The notes beneath the pieces are model-generated. The model did no database searches, was not told the origin of the DNA, and saw only the letters and a list, made by a program, of their open reading frames with translations. From an uncultured virus (IMG/VR IMGVR_UViG_3300042691_011955) (taxonomy: Duplodnaviria > Heunggongvirae > Uroviricota > Caudoviricetes): a stretch of 20,000 nt of DNA. This document shows positions 2,836 through 15,256 of this stretch, one piece after another; position 1 is the first letter of the stretch, and every line of letters begins with the position of its first letter. The translations under genes and the position numbers were made by a program. The stretch is taken from IMG/VR virus record IMGVR_UViG_3300042691_011955. One strand, given 5' to 3'.

Positions 2836-3282
2836 ATGAAAAGTTTATTTGTATTTTTATTAGCAACAGTATTATCTGTTCCGGCTTTTGCACAAGGCAA
2901 AATGCCTACTAAGTCAGCAACATATGATGCACAAATTATTAGAGTGAGTGATGGCGATACTATTGTAATCGCCGCCCCCTTTCTACCAGCCCCGCTCAAA
3001 CCTGAACTTGCTGTTAGAATCTACGGCGTTGACACCCCAGAAAAAGGACACAGAGCTCAATGTCCACAAGAAGACCAGCGAGCGCAACTGGCGAGTAAAT
3101 TTACAACTCAAGCCATACAATCCCACCCAAAGCACCAGGTTATTATCTATGGATGGGATAAGTTTGGTGGCCGTATATTGGGAGACATCTTGGTAAATGG
3201 ACAAAGTATTCGACAAGGATTAATTGCCAACGGTTTAGCTAGAGAGTATTACGGCGATGCTAAACAAAGTTGGTGTAACTAA
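2836..3282 (+). CDS. Thermonuclease (staphylococcal nuclease, SNase-like) with Sec signal peptide
   Basis: RVSDGDT, VRIYGVDTPE, DKFGGRILG and GLAREY motifs; signal peptide ending AFA-Q; AAGGA RBS. Confidence 0.9.
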   Translation: MKSLFVFLLATVLSVPAFAQGKMPTKSATYDAQIIRVSDGDTIVIAAPFLPAPLKPELAVRIYGVDTPEKGHRAQCPQEDQRAQLASKFTTQAIQSHPKHQVIIYGWDKFGGRILGDILVNGQSIRQGLIANGLAREYYGDAKQSWCN

Positions 3283-3374
3283 CACACCTTAGGACCGGTA
3301 TTAAGTTACCGAAAGTGTGCGCCGGCTGCTGGCGCGGAGAAAGCGATTCGCTACCGTAGACTTCGAAAGTGAGC
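3283..3374 (+). ncRNA. Candidate structured non-coding RNA or cis-regulatory element
   Basis: 51/92 G+C by hand count in an AT-rich genome. Stems: CACAC/GTGTG enclosing CGGTA/TACCG; GCGCCGG/CTGGCGC; AGCG/CGCT; ACTT/AAGT. Strand assumed from flanking genes. Confidence 0.55.
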
Positions 3375-3390
3375 TTTATAAAGATTAAAG

Positions 3391-4020
3391 TTGAAAAAGA
3401 TAGCATTATTTTTGCATCAACCCATCTGTGCCGTGGACTCTGCTAACGGCATCATCAAAGCTCTTTCATCCCACTACAGTTTTAAATTATTTTCTAGAGA
3501 CGAAGTTGAACCTACCTTCTTTGATGATGTAGACTGCGTATGTTTTCCCGGAGGCTACGGTGACAGCGATAGATATGATACTCTAATGAAATGGAACTGT
3601 GACGCTGTTAGAAACTTTGTAAAGAGTGGAGGCAAATTTCTTGGAATATGCATGGGAGCATACTGGGCAGATCGAGACTACCTTAATGTCTTAGATGGTG
3701 TTAGAGCAGTACAGTACATCAAACAACCTAACACTGACACAAGACGCCCCCATCCTAAAGCTATGCCAGTGAATTGGTTAGGTGTTAACGAAAGGATGTA
3801 TTTCTATGACGGCTGTGCATTTGTTGGTAATAATATGGATGTTGTGGCTACCTATAGCAACGGTGATCCTATGGCTATTATACAAGGACGCATTGGTGTA
3901 ATAGGATGCCATCCAGAAAGTGAACAGTGGTGGTACGACAAAAAATATCTACAGCCTCACTGGCACGAGAATCGACATCACCAATTATTATTAAATTTTG
4001 TTAATAGACTATTAAGCTAA
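3391..4020 (+). CDS. Class I glutamine amidotransferase-like protein (BPL_N-like)
   Basis: FPGG, nucleophile elbow GICMGAY, and C-terminal HPE complete a Cys-His-Glu triad; TTG start. Confidence 0.8.
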   Translation: MKKIALFLHQPICAVDSANGIIKALSSHYSFKLFSRDEVEPTFFDDVDCVCFPGGYGDSDRYDTLMKWNCDAVRNFVKSGGKFLGICMGAYWADRDYLNVLDGVRAVQYIKQPNTDTRRPHPKAMPVNWLGVNERMYFYDGCAFVGNNMDVVATYSNGDPMAIIQGRIGVIGCHPESEQWWYDKKYLQPHWHENRHHQLLLNFVNRLLS

Positions 4021-4593
4021 AACAAGTTCGTAAATCTCTTTCCAATTTTTAACAATATTATATTCACAAACGTGGTGCATGTTATGTCCATGCTCAATAA
4101 GAATACTTTTTAATCCCAACGCATGTCCAACATCTGCGTTTTGCGGCTTGTCTTCAATCCACCACATACCACTATCCTTGTACGGAGCCAATGCACTGTC
4201 TTTATCTGCGCCTGTGTCTAAGCAAATAACTGATTCAATAGCATTGCCAAAGATCTTGCGTAAATTCATTTCACGCAGTTTCTGTGCATTTTTATCTAGA
4301 CTCAAACTTGTAATAACACGGAATTGATATCCGTGTTCTTCGTGCAGTCGTTTAACATAGAAAGCACTGTCACGAAGTGCAGGAAGAAAGCCAATGGCTG
4401 CAGATTCATTAAAAGTCTTAACAACTTTCTTAGCATCTTTTTCTTCTAATTCATTGTAGTGATGATGCAGATAATAGCTTTTCTTATTATCCGCTGTTAG
4501 TGTATAACCTCGTTCTTGCATCCAAACTGAGAATGCCCATTCCCAATCTAGTAGAACTCCGTCTGCGTCTGTGAGTATAAGTTTACGTTTCAT
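4012..4593 (-). CDS. HAD-superfamily phosphatase (5'-nucleotidase/deoxyribonucleotidase-like)
   Basis: Motif I DADGVL, motif II ITS, motif IV IEDKPQN. Start placed at ATG 4593 (MKRKLIL) because the promoter lies directly upstream. Confidence 0.85.
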   Translation of the reverse strand: MKRKLILTDADGVLLDWEWAFSVWMQERGYTLTADNKKSYYLHHHYNELEEKDAKKVVKTFNESAAIGFLPALRDSAFYVKRLHEEHGYQFRVITSLSLDKNAQKLREMNLRKIFGNAIESVICLDTGADKDSALAPYKDSGMWWIEDKPQNADVGHALGLKSILIEHGHNMHHVCEYNIVKNWKEIYELVLA

Positions 4594-4599
4594 AATGCT

Positions 4600-4628
4600 A
4601 TTATACAATATTCTTGCTCACCTGTCAA
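4600..4628 (-). promoter_or_regulatory. Consensus sigma70 promoter TTGACA-N17-TATAAT driving the HAD gene
   Basis: Plus strand reads tgtcaa at 4623-4628 and attata at 4600-4605, with an exact 17-bp spacer. Confidence 0.88.
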
Positions 4629-4632
4629 CAGG

Positions 4633-4638
4633 TAAATA
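4633..4638 (+). promoter_or_regulatory. TAAATA late-promoter-like motif upstream of the desaturase
   Basis: Same hexamer recurs just upstream of genes at 5390, 10189, 15163, 15227 and 18803; resembles the T4 late promoter TATAAATA. Confidence 0.6.
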
Positions 4639-4675
4639 TACTATTACACAGACACAACATCTTTTGGAGAATATT

Positions 4676-5380
4676 TTGGAAATTATCTTAGCAATCCTAA
4701 TAATGACGCACATTACTATAGTGTGTGTTACGCTGTATTTGCATAGAAGTCAGGCACATAGAGGAATTGAGTTTCATCCAATTCTAAGTCATTTTATGAG
4801 ATTTTGGTTATGGATGACCACAGGAATGACTACTAAAGCATGGGTAGCAGTGCATCGCAAGCATCATCAATCAACTGATGTAGAAGGCGATCCACACAGT
4901 CCTCACATCTTTGGTATTAAACGATTACTACTAGGTGGATGGAGTTTATATCACGAAGCTACTAAAGATCCACAAATGGTTATTAAGTATGGTGCAGGTA
5001 CTCCGAAAGATCGTATTGAAGTTTTCTATACTAGATATCACCGCCATGGCATTCTCTTAATGTTAGTCATAGACTTGTTATTATTTGGGCTATGGGGTTT
5101 TCTAGTATGGGGCGTACAGATGATCTGGATTCCATTCTGGGCCGCAGGATTTATTAATGGCATTGGTCACTGGTGGGGATATCGTAACGGTGAAACCAAA
5201 GACCATAGTCGTAATGTTGGGCCTTGGGGCATACTAATTGGTGGTGAAGAACTACACAATAATCATCACTTGGATCCTGCTAACCCTAAACTAAGTCGTC
5301 GTTGGTTTGAGTTTGATATTGGCTGGATGTGGTTTAAGTTATTTGAATTATTTGGATTAGCCAAGTTGAGAAACAGTTAA
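4676..5380 (+). CDS. Membrane fatty acid (acyl-CoA/acyl-lipid, delta-9-type) desaturase
   Basis: Three His boxes HRSQAH, HRKHH, HNNHH, plus DPHSP and FDIGW. Likely start is the in-frame TTG at 4676 after RBS GGAGA (4666-4670). Confidence 0.92.
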   Translation: MEIILAILIMTHITIVCVTLYLHRSQAHRGIEFHPILSHFMRFWLWMTTGMTTKAWVAVHRKHHQSTDVEGDPHSPHIFGIKRLLLGGWSLYHEATKDPQMVIKYGAGTPKDRIEVFYTRYHRHGILLMLVIDLLLFGLWGFLVWGVQMIWIPFWAAGFINGIGHWWGYRNGETKDHSRNVGPWGILIGGEELHNNHHLDPANPKLSRRWFEFDIGWMWFKLFELFGLAKLRNS

Positions 5381-5389
5381 TAACCTGAG

Positions 5390-5395
5390 TAAATA
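5390..5395 (+). promoter_or_regulatory. TAAATA late-promoter-like motif 4 nt before ATG 5400
   Basis: gagTAAATActaaATG. Confidence 0.6.
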
Positions 5396-5399
5396 CTAA

Positions 5400-5975
5400 A
5401 TGAAAATAACAGAATTAGTCGGCGTAAAGCAAGATTTGGCAACAGCATCCTATACAGATGTTCTACAACAAAAAGGCTTTGCTGCTTTAGGCAGTGGTTC
5501 TTTCGCTACTGTGTGGGGGCACCCCGACTTTGATTATGTATTAAAAACATTCAAAGCCAGCGACACTTCTTATTTGGAATGGTTAGCTGCTTGTCGATCT
5601 AATCAACAGAATCTTTTCATTCCACAGTTTATTAGCCCAAAGCCTGTAAAAGTTGTTCCTGGCATACTTGCAATACGTATGGAAAAACTCACGCCTGCCT
5701 CAGCCGCGGTCAAACCTATTTTGGATAAGTTAGAGGATGTAATAAATGAAGTTACTATTGAAGCTGACCGGCCCACTAGTAGTGCTAGAACCATCTCAAG
5801 AATAATAAAAGAAAGTTATCCTGGACTAGCTGCCTATGCAGCGGCTAACAAAGGGTTGATCCCGGCTATCTCCCTTATTGCCAATATCATCAATAATGGT
5901 AGTGGAGTAAATGATTTAAGCGTTAGTAATATTATGATGCGTGGCGAGCAAATGGTATTTACTGACCCAGTATAA
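5400..5975 (+). CDS. Minimal protein kinase-like fold protein
   Basis: Gly-rich loop LGSGSFATVW, VLK lysine, hinge RMEKL, catalytic-loop-like DLSVSN, metal-binding-like TDP at the C-terminus. Confidence 0.7.
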   Translation: MKITELVGVKQDLATASYTDVLQQKGFAALGSGSFATVWGHPDFDYVLKTFKASDTSYLEWLAACRSNQQNLFIPQFISPKPVKVVPGILAIRMEKLTPASAAVKPILDKLEDVINEVTIEADRPTSSARTISRIIKESYPGLAAYAAANKGLIPAISLIANIINNGSGVNDLSVSNIMMRGEQMVFTDPV

Positions 5976-6019
5976 TCCAAGCTACGCTCTTAATATAATT
6001 TATTGCGATATATAATAGT

Positions 6020-6814
6020 ATGGATTATTACTCTGTACTAGGCATTGCCAAATCTGCTAATCAAGATGACATTAAGCGAGCATATCGAAAACTTGCAATG
6101 CAACATCACCCTGACAAAGGCGGTGACGAAGCTAAGTTTAAAGAGATTAACGAAGCCTATTCTGTATTAGGCGATCCAGCTCAACGAGCGCAATACGACA
6201 ATCCTCAACCACAGGTTAGATTTAGAGCCGGTGACTTTAATAACGATCCATTCTCTGACATGATGTCACAGATGTTTGGTGGTCGAACAAGACGTAACCC
6301 AGACATTACTATTGCAGCAAAAATAGATCTAGTAGATTCAATTGTTGGTAAAAAATTAATAGCAGCCTATAGATTAAGATCAGGTAGGGAAGAAACTGTA
6401 AATATTGATATACCACCCGGTGCTAGACACGGAGACACTATTCGATTCAGCGGGCTAGGCGATGATATTATGCCGGGACAACGCGGCAATCTTTTTGTAA
6501 AAATACAAATACTAGCACATCCTGTTTGGCGTAGAGAAGATGATGACTTGTATGCTAAACAGAATGTCAACGCTCTTGACTTAATCTTAGGATGTAGTAT
6601 AATAGTAAATACTGTAGAAGGTCGTCAATTAGAATTAAAAATTCCTAAAGCATCAAGAAACGGAATAACATTTAGTATCAGCGACTATGGCGCACCAAAT
6701 GTACACACAGGCAGACGTGGAAAAATTTTCCTAACAGTCGAAGCAGAAATTCCTAAAATAGACGACGAAGATATGCTAAACAAAATTAGAGAGATAAGAA
6801 ATGCAATTAGTTAA
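6020..6814 (+). CDS. dnaJ: DnaJ/CbpA-like co-chaperone (J domain plus C-terminal domains, no Zn finger)
   Basis: DYYSVLG, HHPDKGG (HPD), [12 protein letters not shown]-terminal IPPG...GNL...[11 protein letters not shown]. Confidence 0.93.
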
Positions 6815-7310
6815 ATCACCGGATCCTTGGCTAGATAAAGCAGTATCTGCTTTTGATTTTGAAACACTGGATGCTAAACAAATAGAAAAAGAAATGATTG
6901 AGCTAATGATTGCCGAAGGCGGTATAGGCCTTAGTGCTAATCAAGTTGCACTAGATGCTCAAATATTTGTTATAAAACCGTATCTGCTAGAAAATAAAGA
7001 ACCGTTCGCTGTTATTAATCCTGTTATACTTAGAGTAACAGAAGATACAGATGCTAGTCCAGAAGGATGTCTGAGTCATCCGTTGCTGTTCTTGAATGTA
7101 AAAAGACCTAGGGGGTTGGTGGCCAAGTACCTTGACACAGACGCAAAAGAGTGTACAATAGAACTATACGATATTGATGCTCGTTGCTTCCTACATGAAT
7201 ATGATCATCTTCAAGGGATTGAGTTCGTTGATAGAGTATCGAAACTAAAATTAGATTTAGCACGTAAAAAACAAATTAAAATAGAAAAAAGGATTGCACA
7301 ACATGGTTGA
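6801..7310 (+). CDS. def: Peptide deformylase
   Basis: Signature motifs [21 protein letters not shown]. Confidence 0.95.
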
Positions 7311-9540
7311 ACCATCAGAAGAACTACAACTTGTCTTTGATAAAGCTGTTAAAGATGCTAAGGCACTCAAGCACGAATATGTTACCCTTGAGCATCTGCT
7401 TTTTGCAATGTTGTGCTCTGAAAACTTTTACAATCTAGTAAAAGGTGCTAGTGCTGATGTTGATTATATCAAAACTAATCTAGAATATTATCTTAAAAAT
7501 AATCTAGAAGAAATTAAAACAGAAGCAGAAAAGTATAAGCCAAAGAAAACACAGTCAGTTGAACGCTGTTTGAATAGAGCATTTACACAAGTATTGTTTG
7601 CTGGACGATCTGAGATTCAACTGAGCGATGTATTGCTTAGTATACTGTCTGAAAAGAAAAGTCATGCCGCATACTATGCAGAAAAAGCAGGTATTGAAAA
7701 AGAAAAGTTTGCTGATTATATCAACAATGAATTAGAAGTTGAAACACAAGATGAAGAAGTGTCAGGTGTTGCTCAAAAGGCACTGAGACAATTTACGACT
7801 AACCTTAACGACGAAGTTAAAAAGAAACGCATTGATCCATTGATTGGTCGTGCAGACGAACTTGAAAGTATTGCTCTTGCTTTGGGTAGACGCAGTAAGA
7901 ACAACGTACTGTTAGTTGGTGAGCCCGGTGTTGGTAAGACTGCTATTGCAGAAGGTCTTGCATACAATATCGTTGAAGGTACTGTGCCAGCGTTTTTAAA
8001 AGATTACTCTGTGTACATGCTGGACATTGGTAGTATGCTTGCAGGTTCTAAGTATCGCGGTGACTTTGAAGAACGTTTTAAACTTGTACTGTCAGGATTA
8101 AAGAGCAAAGGTAAAACTATTATGTTTATCGACGAAGCTCACATGATGAACGGTGCAGGTGCAGGTGGCGGCAACAGTGCTAATGACCTTGCTAATATGT
8201 TAAAGCCTGCACTGAGCAAAGGTAACATCAAAGTTGTAGCAAGTACTACTTGGGAAGAATATCGCAAGTACTTTGAAAAGGATCGTGCGTTGATGCGCAG
8301 ATTCCAACGTGTTACTGTTGACGAGCCTACTCCAGAAGTAACCAAAGACATCTTACGTGGTATTAAGAAGTACTACGAAGATCATCACAAAGTAACTATC
8401 ACAGACGAAGCGATTGAAGTTGCTGTTAAGCTCAGTGTCAAGTATCAAGCAGATAAGAAGTTACCAGATAAGGCTATTGACTTGATCGATCTTGCGTGTT
8501 CTAGATTTAATCTAAAAGATGTCAAAGAAAAAATCGTAGGCGAACAAGAAGTACAGTTTGAACTTGCTAAGGTAGTAAATCTTCCTCCAGAACAGGTTAT
8601 GGAGAAAGAAACTTCTAATCTAGAAAATCTAGAAAAGAATTTAAAAGCAGAAGTATACGGCCAAGATAACGCGATTGAAAATATTGTTGATAAGATTCTT
8701 GTTGCACAAGCTGGACTAAAACCAGAAAACAAACCAATTGGTAGCTTTGTATTCATGGGTCCAACTGGTACAGGTAAAACAGAAACTGCTAAACAACTTG
8801 CTGGACAGCTTGGTGTAAAATTAGTACGCTTTGACATGAGTGAATATCAGGAAAAGCACAGCGTTAGTAAACTGATTGGTTCACCTCCAGGCTATGTAGG
8901 CTTTGAAGAAAACGCAGGTATTCTAATTACTAAATTACAAGAACACCCTAACTGTGTGCTGTTGCTGGATGAGATTGAAAAAGCACATCCTGATGTAGCC
9001 ACAATCCTATTACAGATTATGGACAACGGTCGTATAACTGGATCAAATGGTAAAGAAGCTGATGCACGTAACTGTGTATTAATCTTAACTACTAACTTGG
9101 GCGCACAGGATGCTGAAAAGAATAATATAGGATTCGGTGACAGTCAAGACAAGGAATACGAAGACAAAGAGCTTAAGAAATTCTTTAGTCCAGAGTTCCG
9201 CAATCGATTAGATGGTATTATTACATTTGGTAAACTGACTAAAGAAGTAATGATGAAGGTTGTTGGCAAGTTCTTAGTTGAACTTAAGGCTCAAGTAGCT
9301 GATAAAAATGTTGAAATTTCAATCACAAACGAATCACTTGATGCACTAGTAGATCGTGGATTTGATAAAAAGATGGGTGCTCGTCCTCTACAACGTGTGA
9401 TTGACAAAGATATTAAACGTCCTTTGGCTCGCAAGCTGTTGTTTGGCGAGTTGAAGAATGGTGGAAAAGTAAACATCGACTTCAGAAACAACGAGTTTGT
9501 ACTCGAATGTGTCACGGAGCAAGTAGTTGAAAAAGTGTGA
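7303..9540 (+). CDS. clpA: ATP-dependent Clp protease ATP-binding subunit, ClpA-type
   Basis: Clp N domain (HEYVTLEHLL); two AAA+ modules (GEPGVGKT/FIDEAH and GPTGTGKT/LLDEIEKAH); IGF loop; no ClpB/C middle domain. Probable start ATG 7303 after AAGGA. Confidence 0.93.
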   Translation: MVEPSEELQLVFDKAVKDAKALKHEYVTLEHLLFAMLCSENFYNLVKGASADVDYIKTNLEYYLKNNLEEIKTEAEKYKPKKTQSVERCLNRAFTQVLFAGRSEIQLSDVLLSILSEKKSHAAYYAEKAGIEKEKFADYINNELEVETQDEEVSGVAQKALRQFTTNLNDEVKKKRIDPLIGRADELESIALALGRRSKNNVLLVGEPGVGKTAIAEGLAYNIVEGTVPAFLKDYSVYMLDIGSMLAGSKYRGDFEERFKLVLSGLKSKGKTIMFIDEAHMMNGAGAGGGNSANDLANMLKPALSKGNIKVVASTTWEEYRKYFEKDRALMRRFQRVTVDEPTPEVTKDILRGIKKYYEDHHKVTITDEAIEVAVKLSVKYQADKKLPDKAIDLIDLACSRFNLKDVKEKIVGEQEVQFELAKVVNLPPEQVMEKETSNLENLEKNLKAEVYGQDNAIENIVDKILVAQAGLKPENKPIGSFVFMGPTGTGKTETAKQLAGQLGVKLVRFDMSEYQEKHSVSKLIGSPPGYVGFEENAGILITKLQEHPNCVLLLDEIEKAHPDVATILLQIMDNGRITGSNGKEADARNCVLILTTNLGAQDAEKNNIGFGDSQDKEYEDKELKKFFSPEFRNRLDGIITFGKLTKEVMMKVVGKFLVELKAQVADKNVEISITNESLDALVDRGFDKKMGARPLQRVIDKDIKRPLARKLLFGELKNGGKVNIDFRNNEFVLECVTEQVVEKV

Positions 9541-10616: not shown

Positions 10617-13600
10617 ATGGCTAAGAAAACTATTAATTTGGGCTCAGGAGAATTAACAGGAGACGGCGAAAGTATACGCTCTGCTTTTTCAAAAGTAAAT
10701 GAAAACTTTACTGAAATATATAATGGCGGGATTGGTGGAAATATCGATCTGTCAGCTGTTGCGCAAAATATTGTACCGTCAGTAGACAGCGACGGTACTA
10801 CAGGATATACGCTAGGTAGTCCAGATTTTAAATGGAAAGAATTATTTGTTTCTAACGGTTCTATCTACATTGGTGATATTAAACTAACTAACGTTGGCGG
10901 TAAGTTTGTTGCTACAAAAGTCGTTAATCCTGGCACAGAAGAAGAAGAGGATGATCCAGAAGACAGCGATGCTACAAGTGACATTAGTGGCAATGCTAAC
11001 ACTGGAAACTTTACGTTCAACGCAGATACAATCGCAAACAATAACGACGCATCGATTGAAGTAGTTGGTGGTTCATTAGGAAACATCGAGGTAGCTACAG
11101 TAGATGAACTTGTGCCGCCAGGCGGCATTTGGAGATTGTTTATTGGTGATGAAGCATATCCTACTTTAGGTACAACTGTTCAGATAGGCGACACTGTAAC
11201 CACATCCTGGGGAACTCCCATAACTGCCACTATTACAGATATCCAACAAGATAACGGCTATTGGCAAATCCACGTTGATCAAGATATTACTGCGGGACAT
11301 GATTATTATGACACAGTTACATTTAGTACAGTAGTAACAACTAAGACTTGGACATTTGGCCAAGATGGTAGTTTACAGATTCCAGGTGGTATTACCGGCG
11401 ACAACGACATCAACATCACTATTGACAATGACGACAGTAGTACATACACTTGGAACTTTGATCGGACTGGTGATCTAACTGCTCCTGGAGATATTACCAC
11501 AGGCCTCGACGGTATTGGTGGTAGATTTATTCAAGACTGTGCTGACGGAGCTACTAGTATGCGTTGGATCAATGTCAATCAAGGCAGCAGTAACACACAA
11601 CTTATCCGTGCTTACACAGGTGATCCTAAACTAAACACAGAAGTTGAACGAGCACAGATCAAACTAAACTGGGATCAAACTGAAGACAAGAGTGGTTTGA
11701 CTATTAGAACATTTGATCAATCCAATCCAAACAACGAAGTAGATCACGATTGGCTATTTAAGGGCGACGGTGTACTACAACTACCTGTGGGTGGAGACAT
11801 TGTAGACAGCACTGGTGCGTCAGTATTAGGCGGTGGGTCAAGCGGTGATGCCAACATCTGGGTACAGACATTTGAATCTGAGGACGGTGCCCCAACAGAC
11901 ATTGTGTCAATAGCATCCAGCGTGGAATATGATAGTGCGGGCAATGTTATTGCCTTGTTCAGTCATTTTAACGACAATGACAACAGTCGTTACTATTCAG
12001 TGGGCAAGTATACCACCACAGGTACCAAGATATGGACAGCAAGATTTGAGGATGGTTTTCAAACAGACGGCTGGGGCTTGGCTGTGGACAATGACAGCAA
12101 CTCAATATATGTGGCAGGTAAAACACTGGTATCAAACGAATCGGGATATGATGTATCCACACTGACCAAACTTGACGCCGCTGATGGCACCTTTGAGTGG
12201 AGCAAGGTCTATGACTTTGGCTTCGTCAGTGACAGTCCTGTAGTTGATGTGGCCTCAGACGGCAATCCAGTCATGGTGGGATATGCCAGCAACGGCACTG
12301 ACAATTATATCACCACTACCAAAGTTGATCCGGCAGACGGCACAATAATATGGTCAAGAGCACTGGATGGACAAGGCAATGAAGAAGCCTTTGGTATGGC
12401 AGTGGGTCCTACAGGAGAAGTAGTGGCTGTTGGTTATATGACTCAGTTAGGTGTACTGTATGCGGCCGAGACATTGTCAGTTGATCCAGCGAGCAATCCA
12501 CTATGGACTGTAGGCGGTTCAATAAATTTTGTGAATGGCATCACAGCAAATTACTCTTTCACTGACGGTGTTCCCACATTTACCAATGTGGTTGATACTA
12601 CGGGTGGCAGATCAGTGGACGATGTAATTGTCACTGTGTTGGGTGAGGACCTTGGCGGCGTTACTGGTGTAGATGATATGATCGTCAAAGTGGCCACCTT
12701 GGCTGCTAACGACACTGACGACCGTATGCTTGTGGTCAAGTACAACAGTTCAGGAGTAATACAGTGGCAAAAAGCCATACAGTTTGATGCGGGCTTTGAC
12801 TGCCGTGGAGCAGATGCTGACATTGACAGCGACGGTAACATCTATGTTACTGGCAGTTATCAATATAGTTTTGAAAGCGGAACAACCAGTGCTCTCAGCA
12901 TACTGAAACTGGACAGCGCGGGTGTGAAACAGTGGAGTAGACGAGTAACAGGCAACTGTGAAACATTTGGCGTCAGTGTGGTGGTTGGCGCTGATGATAA
13001 ACTGTACTTGTCAGCTATGACTGGCAACAACAATGATGTGAACAACGCTTTTACCTGGGTCGCAGCCAAATATGGCATTAATGGCACCGTGGAATGGCAA
13101 AGACTCATAGACAATACCACAGGTTGGTCATTTACTGGCGACATCTTTTCAGGCGAGGGCGGCGGCAGTAACATAGCAGTCAAACAGGACTATGTGGTAC
13201 TTGCGGGCGGGTTTGGTCTTCTAATAGAAGAGCCTCCTCGGGCCACAGTGGTTCAGGTCGCGGCCACTGGAGATGTGTTCTCTGTAGGCGACTGGGCGTT
13301 CACAGCGGCTTCATTCAGCGGTGTACTCAACAGTTCAGCCAGTGACATCACAGTGGTTGACGCACAAAAATTTGACGCAGACAACGGTGAAGGCGAAGTC
13401 ACAGTCACAACAGCAGAATTAACAACAGAGGTCAGCGGTTTCTTGATAGGCACGCTGTACACAGTGGGTGGTGACAACAGTTTAATCAACGGTGCCTACA
13501 CAGTTACTTTGGAAAATACTGGCACTTTAACATTGCCAGCAGGTGGTACTATCACTGAAGGCTATGTTACCAGCAATCCCACAATCCAACTTACTCCAGC

Positions 13601-15155
13601 AAGCCCGGATGTGGCCAGCCAGAAGTTGGTGATCAAGGGCGGTGCTCTCTATAATTTTACCGACAACGGTATAAGCATAAATTACAGTAATAACACCGCC
13701 CTAGTTGGTGATACTCTTACTTTCTATATATCTTCAAACACCTACGCTGATCAAACGCTCTACTGGTGGATCTACCCAGAGGATGCTAACATATCAGATC
13801 CAGGATCAGGCACAGTGGCTGTTAATGAGTTTGGCAATGGCGATTTTAGTTTTACACTAGACAGTGATGACAATGAGTTTACTATTCGTGTGTCACCTGA
13901 AGAGGACAACTACGGTCCGGGAGTTATAGGTGTTCAATCAGGATTGATTAACCCTGACGCACCTACATTTGATTTTGAGCATCACCTACACTTGACCACA
14001 GGCGACTTGGCTGAAACCAGCATCTTCCTGGGCACTGATGATCACAATGTGCGAACAACTGTTAACGGTGACATACAAATTACCACTCCTAACACGGGCA
14101 ACAATGTTTGGACCTTTGACAATGAAGGCGGGTTAACATTACCGGCAGGTGGCGACATTCTTGATAGTAATGGCACAAGCGTGTTGGGCGGAGCAAATAC
14201 TGGCGATATTACTTTTAGCGGTAGAACTATAGGAGCATCAACTGGTACTGGTTCCGATGCTATCACTATTGATGACGATTTAACAATAACCGGAAATGAT
14301 TTAAACTTAGATGCAACTACAGGGTCTCCTAGAATATATTTCTATGAAGGCGGACAAAGTGGCGGCCCAGTTTTAACTATTCAAACTTATGATGTTGTAT
14401 CCGGAGAGACGGGAGCAATGGTTTGGGCAGACAACAGAGGTTCTGGAGTTAGGAATTTATTATTAGGAACAGATGGCGGGGCTGTAAAAATTAGAAGTAC
14501 TGGAGATAACGCTTCTACACACGATTGGACATTTGGCCAAGATGGTAAAACAACATTGCCAGGTGCTGTAGTTAACAGCACAGTGGCCAAGACTGGGATT
14601 GCCTATAACACTGGAACAGCAACTTCTCTATCAGATAGTGGATATATAGGTGCTATTGTAGATGGCAACTACGGACCATTTACTCGAGGACCGGTCACAT
14701 TTACAGTAGTGGTCACTGGTGGCGCGGCCGCATATACTGTTACTAACACAACTGGTAATACCGCAGTGAATGACGTTATTGGAACATTAGATACCGGTGA
14801 TCTAGGCGGAACTTTAGGAAGCACCGCAAATATATCAGTTGCGGATGTTATTCAAGCAGTTACAGCACTGGATCTAACTAAAACTGTCAACAAACTAACA
14901 GACGGTATATATTCTTTAGCAGACGGTGTTGAAGGACAGATCATGTACTTGGTACCACAGAACGGAGCAACACCCGCAAACGTAAGTGTTACTGTAGCTA
15001 CTTACAGAATAGGTGGTGGTACAGGAACTAACGGACTGCTATTACCATTTAGAATATTCAATGATGCCATCGCTTCATATGTTGATAGTAGTGCTTTCTG
15101 TACACTGATATTCACAGACGGTGCTTGGCAACAAACGGGCGGAGCGTGGGATTAA
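10617..15155 (+). CDS. Large tail fibre/baseplate-associated protein with beta-propeller-like region
   Basis: N-terminus INLG...GDGESIRSAFSKVNENFTEIY resembles the T4 gp9/gp10-type anchor. Gly/Thr/Asp-rich. Repeated W-x-F-x-x-D/E-G-x-L linkers and propeller-like blades (KYxxxGxxxW, D-S-x-GN-x-Y). Confidence 0.8.
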   Translation: MAKKTINLGSGELTGDGESIRSAFSKVNENFTEIYNGGIGGNIDLSAVAQNIVPSVDSDGTTGYTLGSPDFKWKELFVSNGSIYIGDIKLTNVGGKFVATKVVNPGTEEEEDDPEDSDATSDISGNANTGNFTFNADTIANNNDASIEVVGGSLGNIEVATVDELVPPGGIWRLFIGDEAYPTLGTTVQIGDTVTTSWGTPITATITDIQQDNGYWQIHVDQDITAGHDYYDTVTFSTVVTTKTWTFGQDGSLQIPGGITGDNDINITIDNDDSSTYTWNFDRTGDLTAPGDITTGLDGIGGRFIQDCADGATSMRWINVNQGSSNTQLIRAYTGDPKLNTEVERAQIKLNWDQTEDKSGLTIRTFDQSNPNNEVDHDWLFKGDGVLQLPVGGDIVDSTGASVLGGGSSGDANIWVQTFESEDGAPTDIVSIASSVEYDSAGNVIALFSHFNDNDNSRYYSVGKYTTTGTKIWTARFEDGFQTDGWGLAVDNDSNSIYVAGKTLVSNESGYDVSTLTKLDAADGTFEWSKVYDFGFVSDSPVVDVASDGNPVMVGYASNGTDNYITTTKVDPADGTIIWSRALDGQGNEEAFGMAVGPTGEVVAVGYMTQLGVLYAAETLSVDPASNPLWTVGGSINFVNGITANYSFTDGVPTFTNVVDTTGGRSVDDVIVTVLGEDLGGVTGVDDMIVKVATLAANDTDDRMLVVKYNSSGVIQWQKAIQFDAGFDCRGADADIDSDGNIYVTGSYQYSFESGTTSALSILKLDSAGVKQWSRRVTGNCETFGVSVVVGADDKLYLSAMTGNNNDVNNAFTWVAAKYGINGTVEWQRLIDNTTGWSFTGDIFSGEGGGSNIAVKQDYVVLAGGFGLLIEEPPRATVVQVAATGDVFSVGDWAFTAASFSGVLNSSASDITVVDAQKFDADNGEGEVTVTTAELTTEVSGFLIGTLYTVGGDNSLINGAYTVTLENTGTLTLPAGGTITEGYVTSNPTIQLTPASPDVASQKLVIKGGALYNFTDNGISINYSNNTALVGDTLTFYISSNTYADQTLYWWIYPEDANISDPGSGTVAVNEFGNGDFSFTLDSDDNEFTIRVSPEEDNYGPGVIGVQSGLINPDAPTFDFEHHLHLTTGDLAETSIFLGTDDHNVRTTVNGDIQITTPNTGNNVWTFDNEGGLTLPAGGDILDSNGTSVLGGANTGDITFSGRTIGASTGTGSDAITIDDDLTITGNDLNLDATTGSPRIYFYEGGQSGGPVLTIQTYDVVSGETGAMVWADNRGSGVRNLLLGTDGGAVKIRSTGDNASTHDWTFGQDGKTTLPGAVVNSTVAKTGIAYNTGTATSLSDSGYIGAIVDGNYGPFTRGPVTFTVVVTGGAAAYTVTNTTGNTAVNDVIGTLDTGDLGGTLGSTANISVADVIQAVTALDLTKTVNKLTDGIYSLADGVEGQIMYLVPQNGATPANVSVTVATYRIGGGTGTNGLLLPFRIFNDAIASYVDSSAFCTLIFTDGAWQQTGGAWD
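11348..14547 (+). repeat. Exact 23-bp direct repeat TTGGACATTTGGCCAAGATGGTA (11348-11370 and 14525-14547) inside the tail fibre gene
   Basis: Both copies read directly from the sequence; they encode WTFGQDG in the same frame. Confidence 0.9.
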
Positions 15156-15232: not shown

Positions 15233-15256
15233 CATGATAAATTTAAGGTTTGATAT

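Follow-up and report, generated by a model that had tools for sequence, protein, structure and literature searches.

The window analysed here is a stretch of 20,000 nucleotides from an uncultured virus of the Caudoviricetes (IMG/VR record IMGVR_UViG_3300042691_011955), in which a gap at positions 3283–3390 separates a staphylococcal-nuclease-like (SNase-like) ORF from a BPL_N/class-I glutamine-amidotransferase-like (GATase-like) ORF (see the table below). The TAA stop codon of the SNase-like ORF (3280–3282) directly adjoins the 5' end of a 92-nt element on the plus strand (3283–3374), which has a GC content of 55% (51/92) compared with 40% for the whole window. The GATase-like ORF starts with a TTG codon 16 nt 3' of the tail of the element and has no SD-like motif. 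An earlier note on this DNA had given the coordinates of the element, the GC content and the TTG start without an SD motif, all of which we could verify in the sequence. Its description of the gap as the only sizeable one in the first 4.5 kb is roughly right; in the other candidate, 1756–1891, we found a 40-aa ORF that has an SD-like motif and takes up the space.

Features of the element and its flanking genes (window coordinates)
Feature	Position	Strand	Remarks
Upstream ORF, staphylococcal-nuclease-like (SNase)	2836..3282	+	Pfam SNase, E 1.8e-9; PHROG endonuclease
P1, 5' strand CACAC	3283..3287	+	pairs with 3315–3319; all 6 helix 1 pairs changed on both sides (100 members)
rRNA-complementary segment 1, ACCTTAGGACCG	3286..3297	+	exact complement of E. 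coli 23S 1920–1931
P1a hairpin, CGGTA-ttaagt-TACCG	3296..3311	+	all 5 helix 2 pairs changed on both sides
P1, 3' strand GTGTG	3315..3319	+	sequence and covariation
P2 hairpin, CGCCGG-ctg-CTGGCG	3320..3334	+	invariant G.U pair 3324–3330
P3	3335..3365	+	outer stem 3335–3339/3361–3365, inner stem 3343–3345/3355–3357, 9-nt loop ATTCGCTAC (3346–3354)
Single-stranded 3' tail AAAGTGAGC, invariant	3366..3374	+	AGTGAGC in 130/130 listed set 1 members (set 1 search pattern did not include AGTGAGC)
Downstream ORF, BPL_N/class-I glutamine-amidotransferase-like (GATase-like)	3391..4020	+	Pfam BPL_N, E 5.3e-9

The near-complete pairing that had first drawn attention to the gap carries no signal in the single sequence. 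The minimum free energy of the 92 nt is −24.8 compared with a shuffle mean of −24.6 (z = −0.07; 97 of 200 shuffles are equally good), and folding with flanks gives a z of −0.72, with no extra stability on either strand. A repeat search located no second copy of the element within the window, and ARAGORN reports no tRNA gene there. As the earlier note had said, the element has no poly-U tail and is not a simple terminator: we find no U-tract after it and no plus-strand terminator-like site at 3283–3390.

Two pattern scans of the IMG/VR viral_contigs (sets 1 and 2) returned at least 130 and at least 109 distinct versions of the element, respectively. Among the 109 listed set 2 versions, 66 are new relative to set 1, and the family thus exceeds 200 distinct versions. 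It is carried by freshwater jumbo phages, usually in single copy. The covariance model R1 has exactly one match in each of 100/100 loci, and one strong match (58–92 bits) is present in 5/5 jumbo-phage records examined, of which three are complete and whose genomes are roughly 350 kb in size. Blastn of the element against the loci recovers only identical copies and two partial ones; collecting the family required patterns and covariance models. In GenBank phages the element has no blastn match. A scan of the whole window with Rfam 15 (4227 models, including riboswitches, ribozymes, tRNA, tmRNA and phage RNAs) gave no match at the gathering score, and searches of window positions 3230–3440 and of a second member (L009, 1440–1640) at E up to 10 gave chance-level matches only. 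The best of these, CRISPR-DR47, reaches 18.6 bits where the gathering score is 39 (E 0.32), and it aligns to a stretch that the family does not conserve. We found no account of such an RNA in the literature, where one listed only in the supplements of the 224-motif paper (PMC5737381) could be missed; a term search of that paper's main text found neither 'freshwater' nor 'lake'. Judged by sequence comparison, window positions 3283–3374 are one member of an undescribed family of structured RNAs of ∼90–105 nt; the earlier note, too, had read the element as a structured RNA and could match it to no family.

In the R1 alignment of 100 members, paired cells amount to 90.2% compared with 68.6% in shuffles, double-change cells number 457 compared with 146 (0/500 shuffles are as high), and the covariation score is 0.418 compared with 0.127 in shuffles and 0.02–0.07 in slid controls. 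Compensatory changes occur at 20 of the 24 pairs and show that three hairpins (P1 with the inserted P1a, P2 and P3) are preserved through compensation in the stems. At internal pairs G.U is far more frequent than A.C (for example 14:1, 9:1, 11:2 and 9:0), which favours the plus strand, and the functional unit spans about 3280–3380. The first two stems had been read correctly from the single sequence: the CACAC/GTGTG stem with its CTTAGGAC/AAA loop, the CGGTA-ttaagt-TACCG hairpin and GCGCCGG-ctg-CTGGCGC (3319–3335) are all present, and stems 1 and 2 are kept by relatives. The letters of a third stem (CGG..AGCG-att-CGCT..CCG) and a fourth (ACTT-cga-AAGT) are present as well, but relatives keep neither of them; in the region of P3 it is helices 4 and 5 that covary, with all 8 pairs changed on both sides. 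P1a is a variable insertion and is absent from the minimal members L233 and L274. The outer pair of P2 swaps between CG (54) and GC (44) across the alignment.

The duplicated motif CGAAAGTG(T/A)GC does occur at both sites reported for it, 3310–3320 and 3364–3374 (2 matches compared with 0.01 expected; 0/200 shuffles reached 2), but the second TACCG does not directly precede the second copy. The two related sub-domains that it had suggested are not a property of the family: GAAAGTG is found twice in only 3 of the 130 listed members, and the duplication belongs to the lineage of the window. Invariance across the family is instead concentrated in the unpaired parts, namely the P1 internal loop (CTTAGGAC, 3288–3295, opposite AAA), the P2 apex, the P3 loop and the AAAGUGAGC tail. 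Within the P1 loop, CTTAGG is invariant in 130/130 listed set 1 members, of whose search pattern it was itself a part, and CTTAGGA is exact in 94/109 listed set 2 members, whose pattern did not contain P1. Several local resemblances were considered and set aside. For the type B P3 loop, a pseudoknot with the tail can be drawn with six pairs; its linker of 3 nt seems insufficient, the pairing is missing from other P3 types, and the invariance of the tail means that covariation cannot probe it. GGA in loops recalls a CsrA sponge, for which there are too few sites, and none in type B. Resemblances to the sarcin-ricin loop, Cas9 tracrRNA, twister, the HDV ribozyme and lambda boxB did not survive family comparison or the Rfam scan. 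ARAGORN finds no tRNA or tmRNA gene in the window or in 60 family loci, none of which has a tRNA within 1.2 kb, so that membership of a tRNA cluster was discarded. The anticodon-loop-like format of the P1 loop is a resemblance only.

Comparison with rRNA revealed a property that the earlier note had not seen and that we regard as the main lead: three of the conserved segments are complementary to functional centers of both ribosomal subunits. The reference used was E. coli rrsH and rrlH, a stand-in that may differ from the rRNA of the host. Segment 1 in P1 (3286–3297) is complementary to the 3' strand of 23S helix 69 and the adjoining linker; 3323–3333 (CGGCTGCTGGC, in P2) is an exact complement of 16S 517–527 in the 530 loop, and 3347–3355 (TTCGCTACC, in P3) is an exact complement of 23S 1929–1937. 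Together the three segments address E. coli 23S 1919–1937 and 16S 517–528. All 130 listed set 1 members contain exact complements of 9–15 nt to 23S 1919–1933 and of 10–11 nt to 16S 517–528. Together, the 130 listed members contain 203 complementary stretches of 11 nt or more compared with 0 in reversed, 5 in sense and 4 in shuffled controls, a statistic that rests on few motifs common by descent and thus represents effectively two or three events, not 130. P1-domain complements of at least 11 nt are found in 127/130 listed set 1 members and in 92/109 listed set 2 members, where P1 was outside the search pattern; 12 nt are reached by the P1 domains of 93/130 listed real members and of 0/130 shuffles. 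The P3 loop match extends over 9 nt in 33 of the 130 listed members and over 8 nt in another 6.

Variant P2 stems of the GCGG/CUGC type (GCGGCUGCUG) retain a 10-nt complement to 16S 519–528, the copy in G004 retains all three rRNA matches, and in the paralogue in G002 the loop UCGCUACCUU matches 23S 1927–1936; divergent members keep complementarity in shifted registers. Of the three kinds of change observed in the P1 loop, two replace A by G where the target has U, so that a wobble pair remains; CCCUAGG variants make up 7 of the 109 listed set 2 members. An unpaired UAC insert in 69/130 listed members lengthens the match to 23S 1931–1933. Other comparisons gave no such signal. P3 as a whole has no rRNA complementarity above shuffles, and the invariant tail matches rRNA over only 7 nt (23S 1099–1105), which is not significant alone. 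For the window sequence by itself, 5/300 shuffles also reach an 11-nt match to 16S, full-length RNAduplex against 16S was uninformative, and blastn against E. coli genomes gave no match, its sensitivity in a 28-Gb collection being too low to show the complementarity. The matches were noticed after several other comparisons, which carries a multiple-testing cost. The P2 complement is mostly buried in P2's own stem, and on the target side mature ribosomes have 23S 1919–1924 base-paired within helix 69 (PMC2602781).

Across the family, the element lies mostly between co-oriented genes. We counted 142 distinct contexts among the matches listed. Among these, the upstream ORF is on the strand of the element in 106/132 contexts and its stop lies within 13 nt of the element in 81/106; the next plus-strand ORF starts within 40 nt in 70/98, and an abutting stop and a near start occur together in only 42/142. 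An SD-like motif accompanies 6 of those 70 near starts compared with 222/516 baseline ORFs (starts called mechanically) or, counted by gene family, 3 of the 21 near downstream families. A further 11 downstream families are far, and elsewhere the element is followed by terminators, or by promoter-like motifs that precede the next gene. The neighbours of the element belong to at least 30 different families, and no conserved promoter motif is found within 80 nt upstream of it. Strong intrinsic terminators within 80 nt downstream, starting 9–27 nt after the tail, are present in 6/142 contexts and absent from 136/142, and a run of six or more T begins within 2 nt of the tail in 11/142 contexts among the matches listed. 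The element is conserved upstream of GATase homologues whose own upstream genes differ; more distant homologues (at most about 65% identity) have no element upstream. As for transcripts, six public RNA runs contain 7–15% of the words of window positions 2900–3900. Contigs assembled from four of the runs have low depth and cover the nuclease gene and nothing on 3308–3900, so that the bulk of the element is uncovered, which speaks neither for nor against its expression; contig X15 (151 nt) stops at 3304, and X19, from a relative, continues from 3297 into unlike sequence.

In the reading that we prefer, the RNA would work by base-pairing with rRNA and so be a ribosome-binding RNA; we put the chances of this reading, whether in cis or in trans, at about even. 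The RNA would have no promoter of its own and would be co-transcribed with the upstream gene. In the variant that we favour, it would act in cis, holding or recruiting ribosomes or subunits as they finish at the adjoining stop codon; these would then initiate at the nearby start, mostly without an SD motif. The small number of contexts having both stop and start, the six terminators and the intervening promoter-like motifs count against action in cis. Nearly as likely, the RNA would be cut from the transcript and act in trans, with host ribosomes or their assembly as its target. A more specific proposal, which we offer tentatively and hold to be possible rather than probable, is that these giant phages of fresh water possess an RNA dedicated to seizing ribosomes. 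Its three segments would pair with the 530 loop of 16S and with the helix 69/helix 70 linker of 23S, and host ribosomes would thereby be captured or re-programmed. The RNA might direct ribosomes that are terminating to phage genes without an SD motif, which would make it the bacterial equivalent of viral reinitiation or IRES-like elements, or alternatively block subunit joining or recycling on host messages. The 530 loop (16S 517–528) is, we presume, universal in sequence and hardly varies, and together with the helix 69/helix 70 linker it presumably lines the A site and bridge B2a. As sequences of the 530 loop and helix 69 hardly vary, the RNA would work in any host, which would suit phages with diverse hosts. 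Helix 69 (1906–1924) and 23S 1915–1938 are described as universally conserved, as forming bridge B2a and contacting tRNAs, and as acting in recycling (PMC2602781).

A rival reading is a stable, trans-acting small RNA that is freed from polycistronic transcripts like phage tRNAs and binds a protein or some RNA other than rRNA, with the rRNA complementarity as a relic (for instance of a captured antisense rDNA fragment) or a coincidence. Its single, gene-like copy beside at least 30 different neighbour families, the conserved loops on covarying stems, which are typical of binding surfaces, the terminators that several members have 9–27 nt downstream and the invariant tail without a convincing rRNA partner all agree with such an RNA. 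The exactly complementary segments are, however, the invariant parts while the rest drifts, and divergent members and the paralogue keep complementarity in shifted registers, which a relic would not. We regard this explanation as rather unlikely.

The position directly after a stop codon would also suit an element acting on transcription in cis, either a put/nut-like antitermination site or an unusual terminator ending the upstream unit; the six strong terminators 9–27 nt downstream, the 11 T runs at the tail and the 15-nt hairpin format of P2 point the same way. We consider it improbable, because 136/142 contexts among the matches listed, and the window itself, have no nearby terminator, there is one copy per roughly 350-kb genome, and the rRNA complementarity would be left unexplained. 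The arrangement is not that of an intrinsic terminator either, the 9 conserved tail nucleotides parting P3 from any U run.

Still less probable is a functional minus strand, whose loops carry the rRNA sequences themselves and could present sense copies of the helix 69 region and the 530 loop as a mimic or decoy to a ribosome-directed protein (a toxin, a modification enzyme or a factor). Read on this strand, the flanks are AT-rich before the RNA and U-rich after the last hairpin. Yet G.U is in large excess over A.C at internal pairs, P2 would have an invariant A.C mismatch, the element is co-oriented with its neighbours, and P1a does not fold in the helix 69 register given in PMC2602781. We give just as little credence to a self-cleaving ribozyme or RNase processing module that parts the upstream and downstream cistrons, an idea already raised in the earlier note. 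The site between cistrons directly after a stop codon, the conserved unpaired nucleotides and a conserved 3' tail with which a pseudoknot might form would be in keeping with it. Against it, no Rfam ribozyme model (among them hammerhead, twister, twister-sister, pistol, hatchet, HDV-like) matched two members at E up to 10, the element is single copy, its conserved nucleotides lie in loops and not at a multi-helix junction, and cleavage would not account for the rRNA complementarity.

Finally, a riboswitch or ligand-sensing leader of the GATase-like gene, the cis-regulatory role that the earlier note had entertained, can be rejected since the element is not tied to that gene: the gene follows, at a median of 16 nt and with a start lacking an SD-like motif, in only 29 of the 142 contexts among the matches listed, with at least 21 other families elsewhere and distant homologues lacking the element, while the upstream ORF abuts without an upstream promoter, no riboswitch model matched, and the downstream terminators (9–27 nt after the tail) share on inspection no conserved alternative pairing.

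Whatever its mechanism, the element defines an RNA family that is widespread, covaries strongly, had not been filed before and merits an Rfam entry. If the pairing with rRNA is functional, this would be the first known phage or bacterial RNA to address the ribosome via long complements to 16S and 23S and not via Shine-Dalgarno pairing, and natural pairing with large-subunit rRNA as a means of controlling translation would be a novelty in bacteria and phages. It would offer a handle on the translation of SD-less and leaderless phage genes, on translation takeover by jumbo phages and on the accessibility of rRNA segments in vivo.

Among phage RNAs, the closest parallels in gene organization are species 1 and 2 of T4 (rnaC/rnaD) and phage tRNA genes, which are single-copy, promoter-less and co-transcribed with their neighbours in large phages. 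The present family differs in having no tRNA nearby (within 1.2 kb in 60 loci, or in the window) and no blastn match in GenBank phages. Archaeal and eukaryotic box C/D and H/ACA guides are likewise small structured RNAs with 10–13-nt antisense elements to central rRNA segments, and the phage element resembles them in size, structure and its 10–13-nt antisense to conserved rRNA. To our knowledge, bacteria do not employ guide RNAs. A guide of either class was rejected here: positions 3283–3374 contain neither UGAUGA nor CUGA, there is no ACA tail at the 3' end, and the 3' side of the P1 loop consists of 2–4 variable nucleotides and so offers no two-sided pseudouridylation pocket. We also found no partner-enzyme gene near the element.

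In the cis variant of the ribosome-binding reading, the nearest functional analogues would be the TURBS-type elements of caliciviruses and influenza B, which tether the post-termination ribosome via complementarity to an rRNA loop and allow reinitiation at a signal-less start. The phage element likewise has a conserved unpaired motif complementary to an rRNA loop, and in some of its contexts (42/142) it lies near a stop and a start. TURBS belong to eukaryotic systems, have 18S as their sole partner and precede an overlapping stop/start, whereas the phage element sits inside the junction, between stop and start, complements both 16S and 23S, folds into three covarying hairpins and often has no close downstream gene. 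Complementarity to 16S outside the SD interaction is also a property of the leader enhancer of phage T7 gene 10; we know of no case in which the 530 loop or the helix 69 region serves as an mRNA docking site. Initiation is promoted, too, by mRNA pairing with 16S outside the anti-SD at C-rich sites (PMC3310771). Such non-SD sites are short, unstructured, located directly before the start codon and directed at 16S only, whereas the phage element is ∼100 nt long, has a fold of its own and is complementary over 10–13 nt to both the 530 loop and the helix 69 region of 23S.

The window comes from a jumbo phage whose relatives are contigs of 300–367 kb. Over the 501 nt tested, it is identical to a viral record of 98 kb with an estimated completeness of 27%. 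The element, a candidate structured RNA on the + strand, lies in a gap between two ORFs (3283–3390). A lysis cassette upstream (57–1755) comprises a GH19-type endolysin, an Rz1/LysC-like ORF and a GTA-type 3-TM holin, a series of host-like auxiliary genes occupies 4012–9540, and a 1512-amino acid ORF (10617–15155) has no PHROG match at E 1e-5. All strings listed in an earlier note on this sequence are present, with a G+C count of 51/92. The note took the almost full pairing of the element as a signal, but shuffled versions of this one sequence fold about as well (z is −0.07 for 3283–3374 and −0.72 with flanks). ARAGORN and the Rfam scan that the note had proposed returned no match for the element. 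The observation from the window sequence alone would not exceed chance.

Features of the element and of neighboring genes, in window coordinates
Feature	Coordinates	Remarks
Staphylococcal-nuclease-like (SNase) ORF	2836–3282	Upstream of the gap
P1 stem	3283–3287 with 3315–3319	
P1 internal loop	3288–3295	Invariant; CTTAGGAC
P1a, inserted hairpin	3296–3311	Missing in minimal members
P2	3320–3334	Apex GGCUGCU; invariant G·U pair
P3 outer stem	3335–3339/3361–3365	
P3 inner stem	3343–3345/3355–3357	
P3 9-nt loop		ATTCGCTAC
Tail	3366–3374	Invariant; AAAGTGAGC
BPL_N/GATase-like ORF	3391–4020	Downstream of the gap; TTG start, no SD-like motif
5'-Nucleotidase-like gene	within 4012–9540	Minus strand
Fatty-acid desaturase, DnaJ and peptide deformylase genes	within 4012–9540	
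748-amino acid protein	within 4012–9540	Matches PHROG family named ATP-dependent protease
(G)ATAAATA(C)T motif, examples	5385–5399, 15240–15256	Also loci L165, L169, L189, L194, L209, L246, L283

Comparing the DNA around homologues of both flanking proteins, we found in ∼25 distinct relatives a conserved ∼100-nt element ahead of the GATase-like gene, despite differing upstream genes. Two pattern searches of the viral collection yielded, among the matches listed, at least 130 distinct versions (set 1, from which L236, L238 and L266, chance matches within ORFs, were removed) and at least 109 (set 2, 66 of them new). A covariance model built from 22 window-like members on a hand-drawn structure finds exactly one match per locus in 100 of 100 loci. 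In the 100-locus alignment, 90.2% of the cells are paired compared with 68.6% in shuffles, 457 cells are changed on both sides compared with 146 (0 of 500 shuffles reach 457), the covariation score is 0.418 (shuffles, 0.127; slid partners, 0.02–0.07), and the compensatory changes that the earlier note had named as a check occur in 20 of 24 pairs, figures that are flattered because the alignment was fitted to the covariance model. Base-pair swaps are directly visible in the raw sequences and the differences from shuffles are large; structure and family are solid. Of the structures drawn in the note, the first two stems and the small hairpin hold, whereas stems 3 and 4 are not conserved; triplets flanking the P3 loop covary in relatives (CCG/CGG, UGA/UCA, CUA/UAG and others). 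The window does carry the CGAAAGTG motif in duplicate, but this is not general: GAAAGTG is present twice in only 3 of 130 set-1 members. P3 has several apical types in the family, the window being type B. The string GGTGT-aactaa-CACACC (3271–3288) could form a hairpin from the nuclease ORF end and the P1 5' strand, which would compete with P1; a terminator scan lists it as a minus-strand terminator-like site, and it is seen only in the window's lineage.

A second covariance model (R2) finds one strong copy in each of five jumbo-phage records, three of them complete. One complete 353-kb genome also carries a weak paralogue (G002:C1:76932–77018, locus L294; 26.3 bits), which retains a P2 variant and the tail and has lost the P1 loop motif. 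Among 185,579 prokaryote species, represented by one genome each, the single match (L286) is a 14.6-kb contig (CAZHPL010000057.1) in a MAG titled uncultured Lishizhenia sp.; it may be a phage contig assigned to the wrong bin, or it may hint weakly at the host. The family appears to be new: it has no Rfam match, blastn does not find it in GenBank phage records, and literature searches, which for the large motif surveys covered the main text, turned up no similar RNA. A metatranscriptome contig (RNA run X19) from a relative that is 90–95% alike matches window 3193–3297 and, beyond the P1 loop, reads into a version of the element whose P2 sequence differs; the search patterns may therefore not capture the whole family. 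We detected no tRNA within 1.2 kb of the element in 60 loci. In more distant phages (L053 and L054), the GATase-like gene is preceded not by the element but by what resembles a tRNA gene's 3' end, with CCA as its last letters.

The element is a covarying three-hairpin RNA, and its invariant loops are exact complements of conserved rRNA. Compared with the E. coli K-12 rrnH operon, which may not represent the host, window 3286–3297 is the exact complement of 23S 1920–1931, 3347–3355 of 23S 1929–1937, and 3323–3333 of 16S 517–527, although for the window alone an 11-nt match to 16S is reached by 5 of 300 shuffles. The P2 core resembles the complement of a site in 16S rRNA used for universal primers, and to our knowledge the 16S 530 loop, where the 16S match lies, is universal. 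The 130 set-1 members together contain 203 complementary stretches of 11 nt or more (controls: reversed, 0; sense-orientation, 5; shuffled, 4), which, the members being related, amount to a few conserved motifs and not to 130 independent events. In the P1 domain the match is 11 nt or longer in 127 of 130 set-1 members and 12 nt or longer, a length that no shuffle reached, in 93 of them; in set 2, whose search pattern excluded P1, 92 of 109 members have a match of 11 nt or more (maximum 15 nt). An unpaired UAC in 69 of 130 members lengthens the P1 match to 23S 1931–1933, and of the three kinds of substitution observed in the P1 loop, two replace A by G where the target has a U. Divergent members keep the complementarity in other registers: GCGG/CUGC-type P2 stems match 16S 519–528, and the P3 loop of the weak paralogue is complementary to 23S 1927–1936 though its P1 loop is lost. 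The copy in jumbo-phage record G004 retains all three matches. P1a retains some resemblance to the antisense of the 5' half of helix 69; in 23 members, for instance, matches of 8–15 nt start at 23S 1900–1919. The 23S target is the 3' strand of helix 69 and the following linker, a region described as universally conserved, forming bridge B2a, touching A- and P-site tRNAs and having a role in recycling (PMC2602781).

This complementarity is a strong and unexpected observation, made after several other resemblances had failed. The P2 complement lies mostly inside P2's own stem, 23S 1919–1924 is paired within mature helix 69, and the complementarity of whole P3 to rRNA is not above shuffles. With regard to mechanism, we infer from these matches that the RNA may bind ribosomal RNA; that it does so, in cis or in trans, has about an even chance of being correct.

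A partner other than rRNA, with the complementarity a relic, is unlikely: the tail has no convincing rRNA partner, which favors another partner, but the shifted registers of divergent members argue against a relic. Action at the level of transcription appears quite improbable; it is favored by six of the 142 distinct contexts compared, in which an intrinsic terminator follows within 80 nt, and by eleven with a T run directly after the tail. We give little more than a slight chance to a minus-strand mimic, since G·U pairs far outnumber A·C pairs at internal helix positions, P2 read on the minus strand has an A·C mismatch in every member, and the upstream ORF is co-oriented with the element in 106 of 132 contexts; we conclude from these features that the RNA is the + strand. 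A ribozyme or processing module, which would have no counterpart in Rfam, has a similarly slight chance. The riboswitch dedicated to the GATase-like gene that the earlier note considered is scarcely credible and effectively ruled out, because the neighbors are diverse auxiliary genes, the GATase-like gene follows in only 29 of 142 contexts and more distant homologues have no element upstream. In 81 of 106 contexts the upstream + strand ORF stops no more than 13 nt from the element; together with this diversity and no promoter-like conservation seen upstream, this indicates that the RNA and the gene upstream normally share a transcript.

If the element pairs with rRNA in trans, it would be processed out of the transcript and act on ribosomes or their assembly. 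In cis, it would be a tether passing terminating ribosomes to the next start or, alternatively, would recruit ribosomes to that start without an SD. Either cis mode would fit because the stop abuts the element, the next + strand start is near (within 40 nt in 70 of 98 contexts) and the SD is mostly missing, an SD-like motif preceding 6 of 70 near starts (3 of 21 near gene families) compared with 222 of 516 baseline ORFs and 14 of 23 window genes. Against the cis variant, abutting stop and near start coincide in only 42 of 142 contexts, and terminators or promoter-like motifs follow the element in some. Leaderless transcripts from a (G)ATAAATA(C)T motif may instead explain the missing SD; this motif recurs in many contexts 3–10 nt ahead of the next start codon, itself without an SD-like motif. 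We take this motif to resemble a T4-late-type promoter box; if it is one, these phages would express many of their genes with little or no leader. As a tether, the element would be analogous to viral termination-reinitiation signals. A further possible analogue of the cis variant is the non-SD 16S complementarity in E. coli (PMC3310771).
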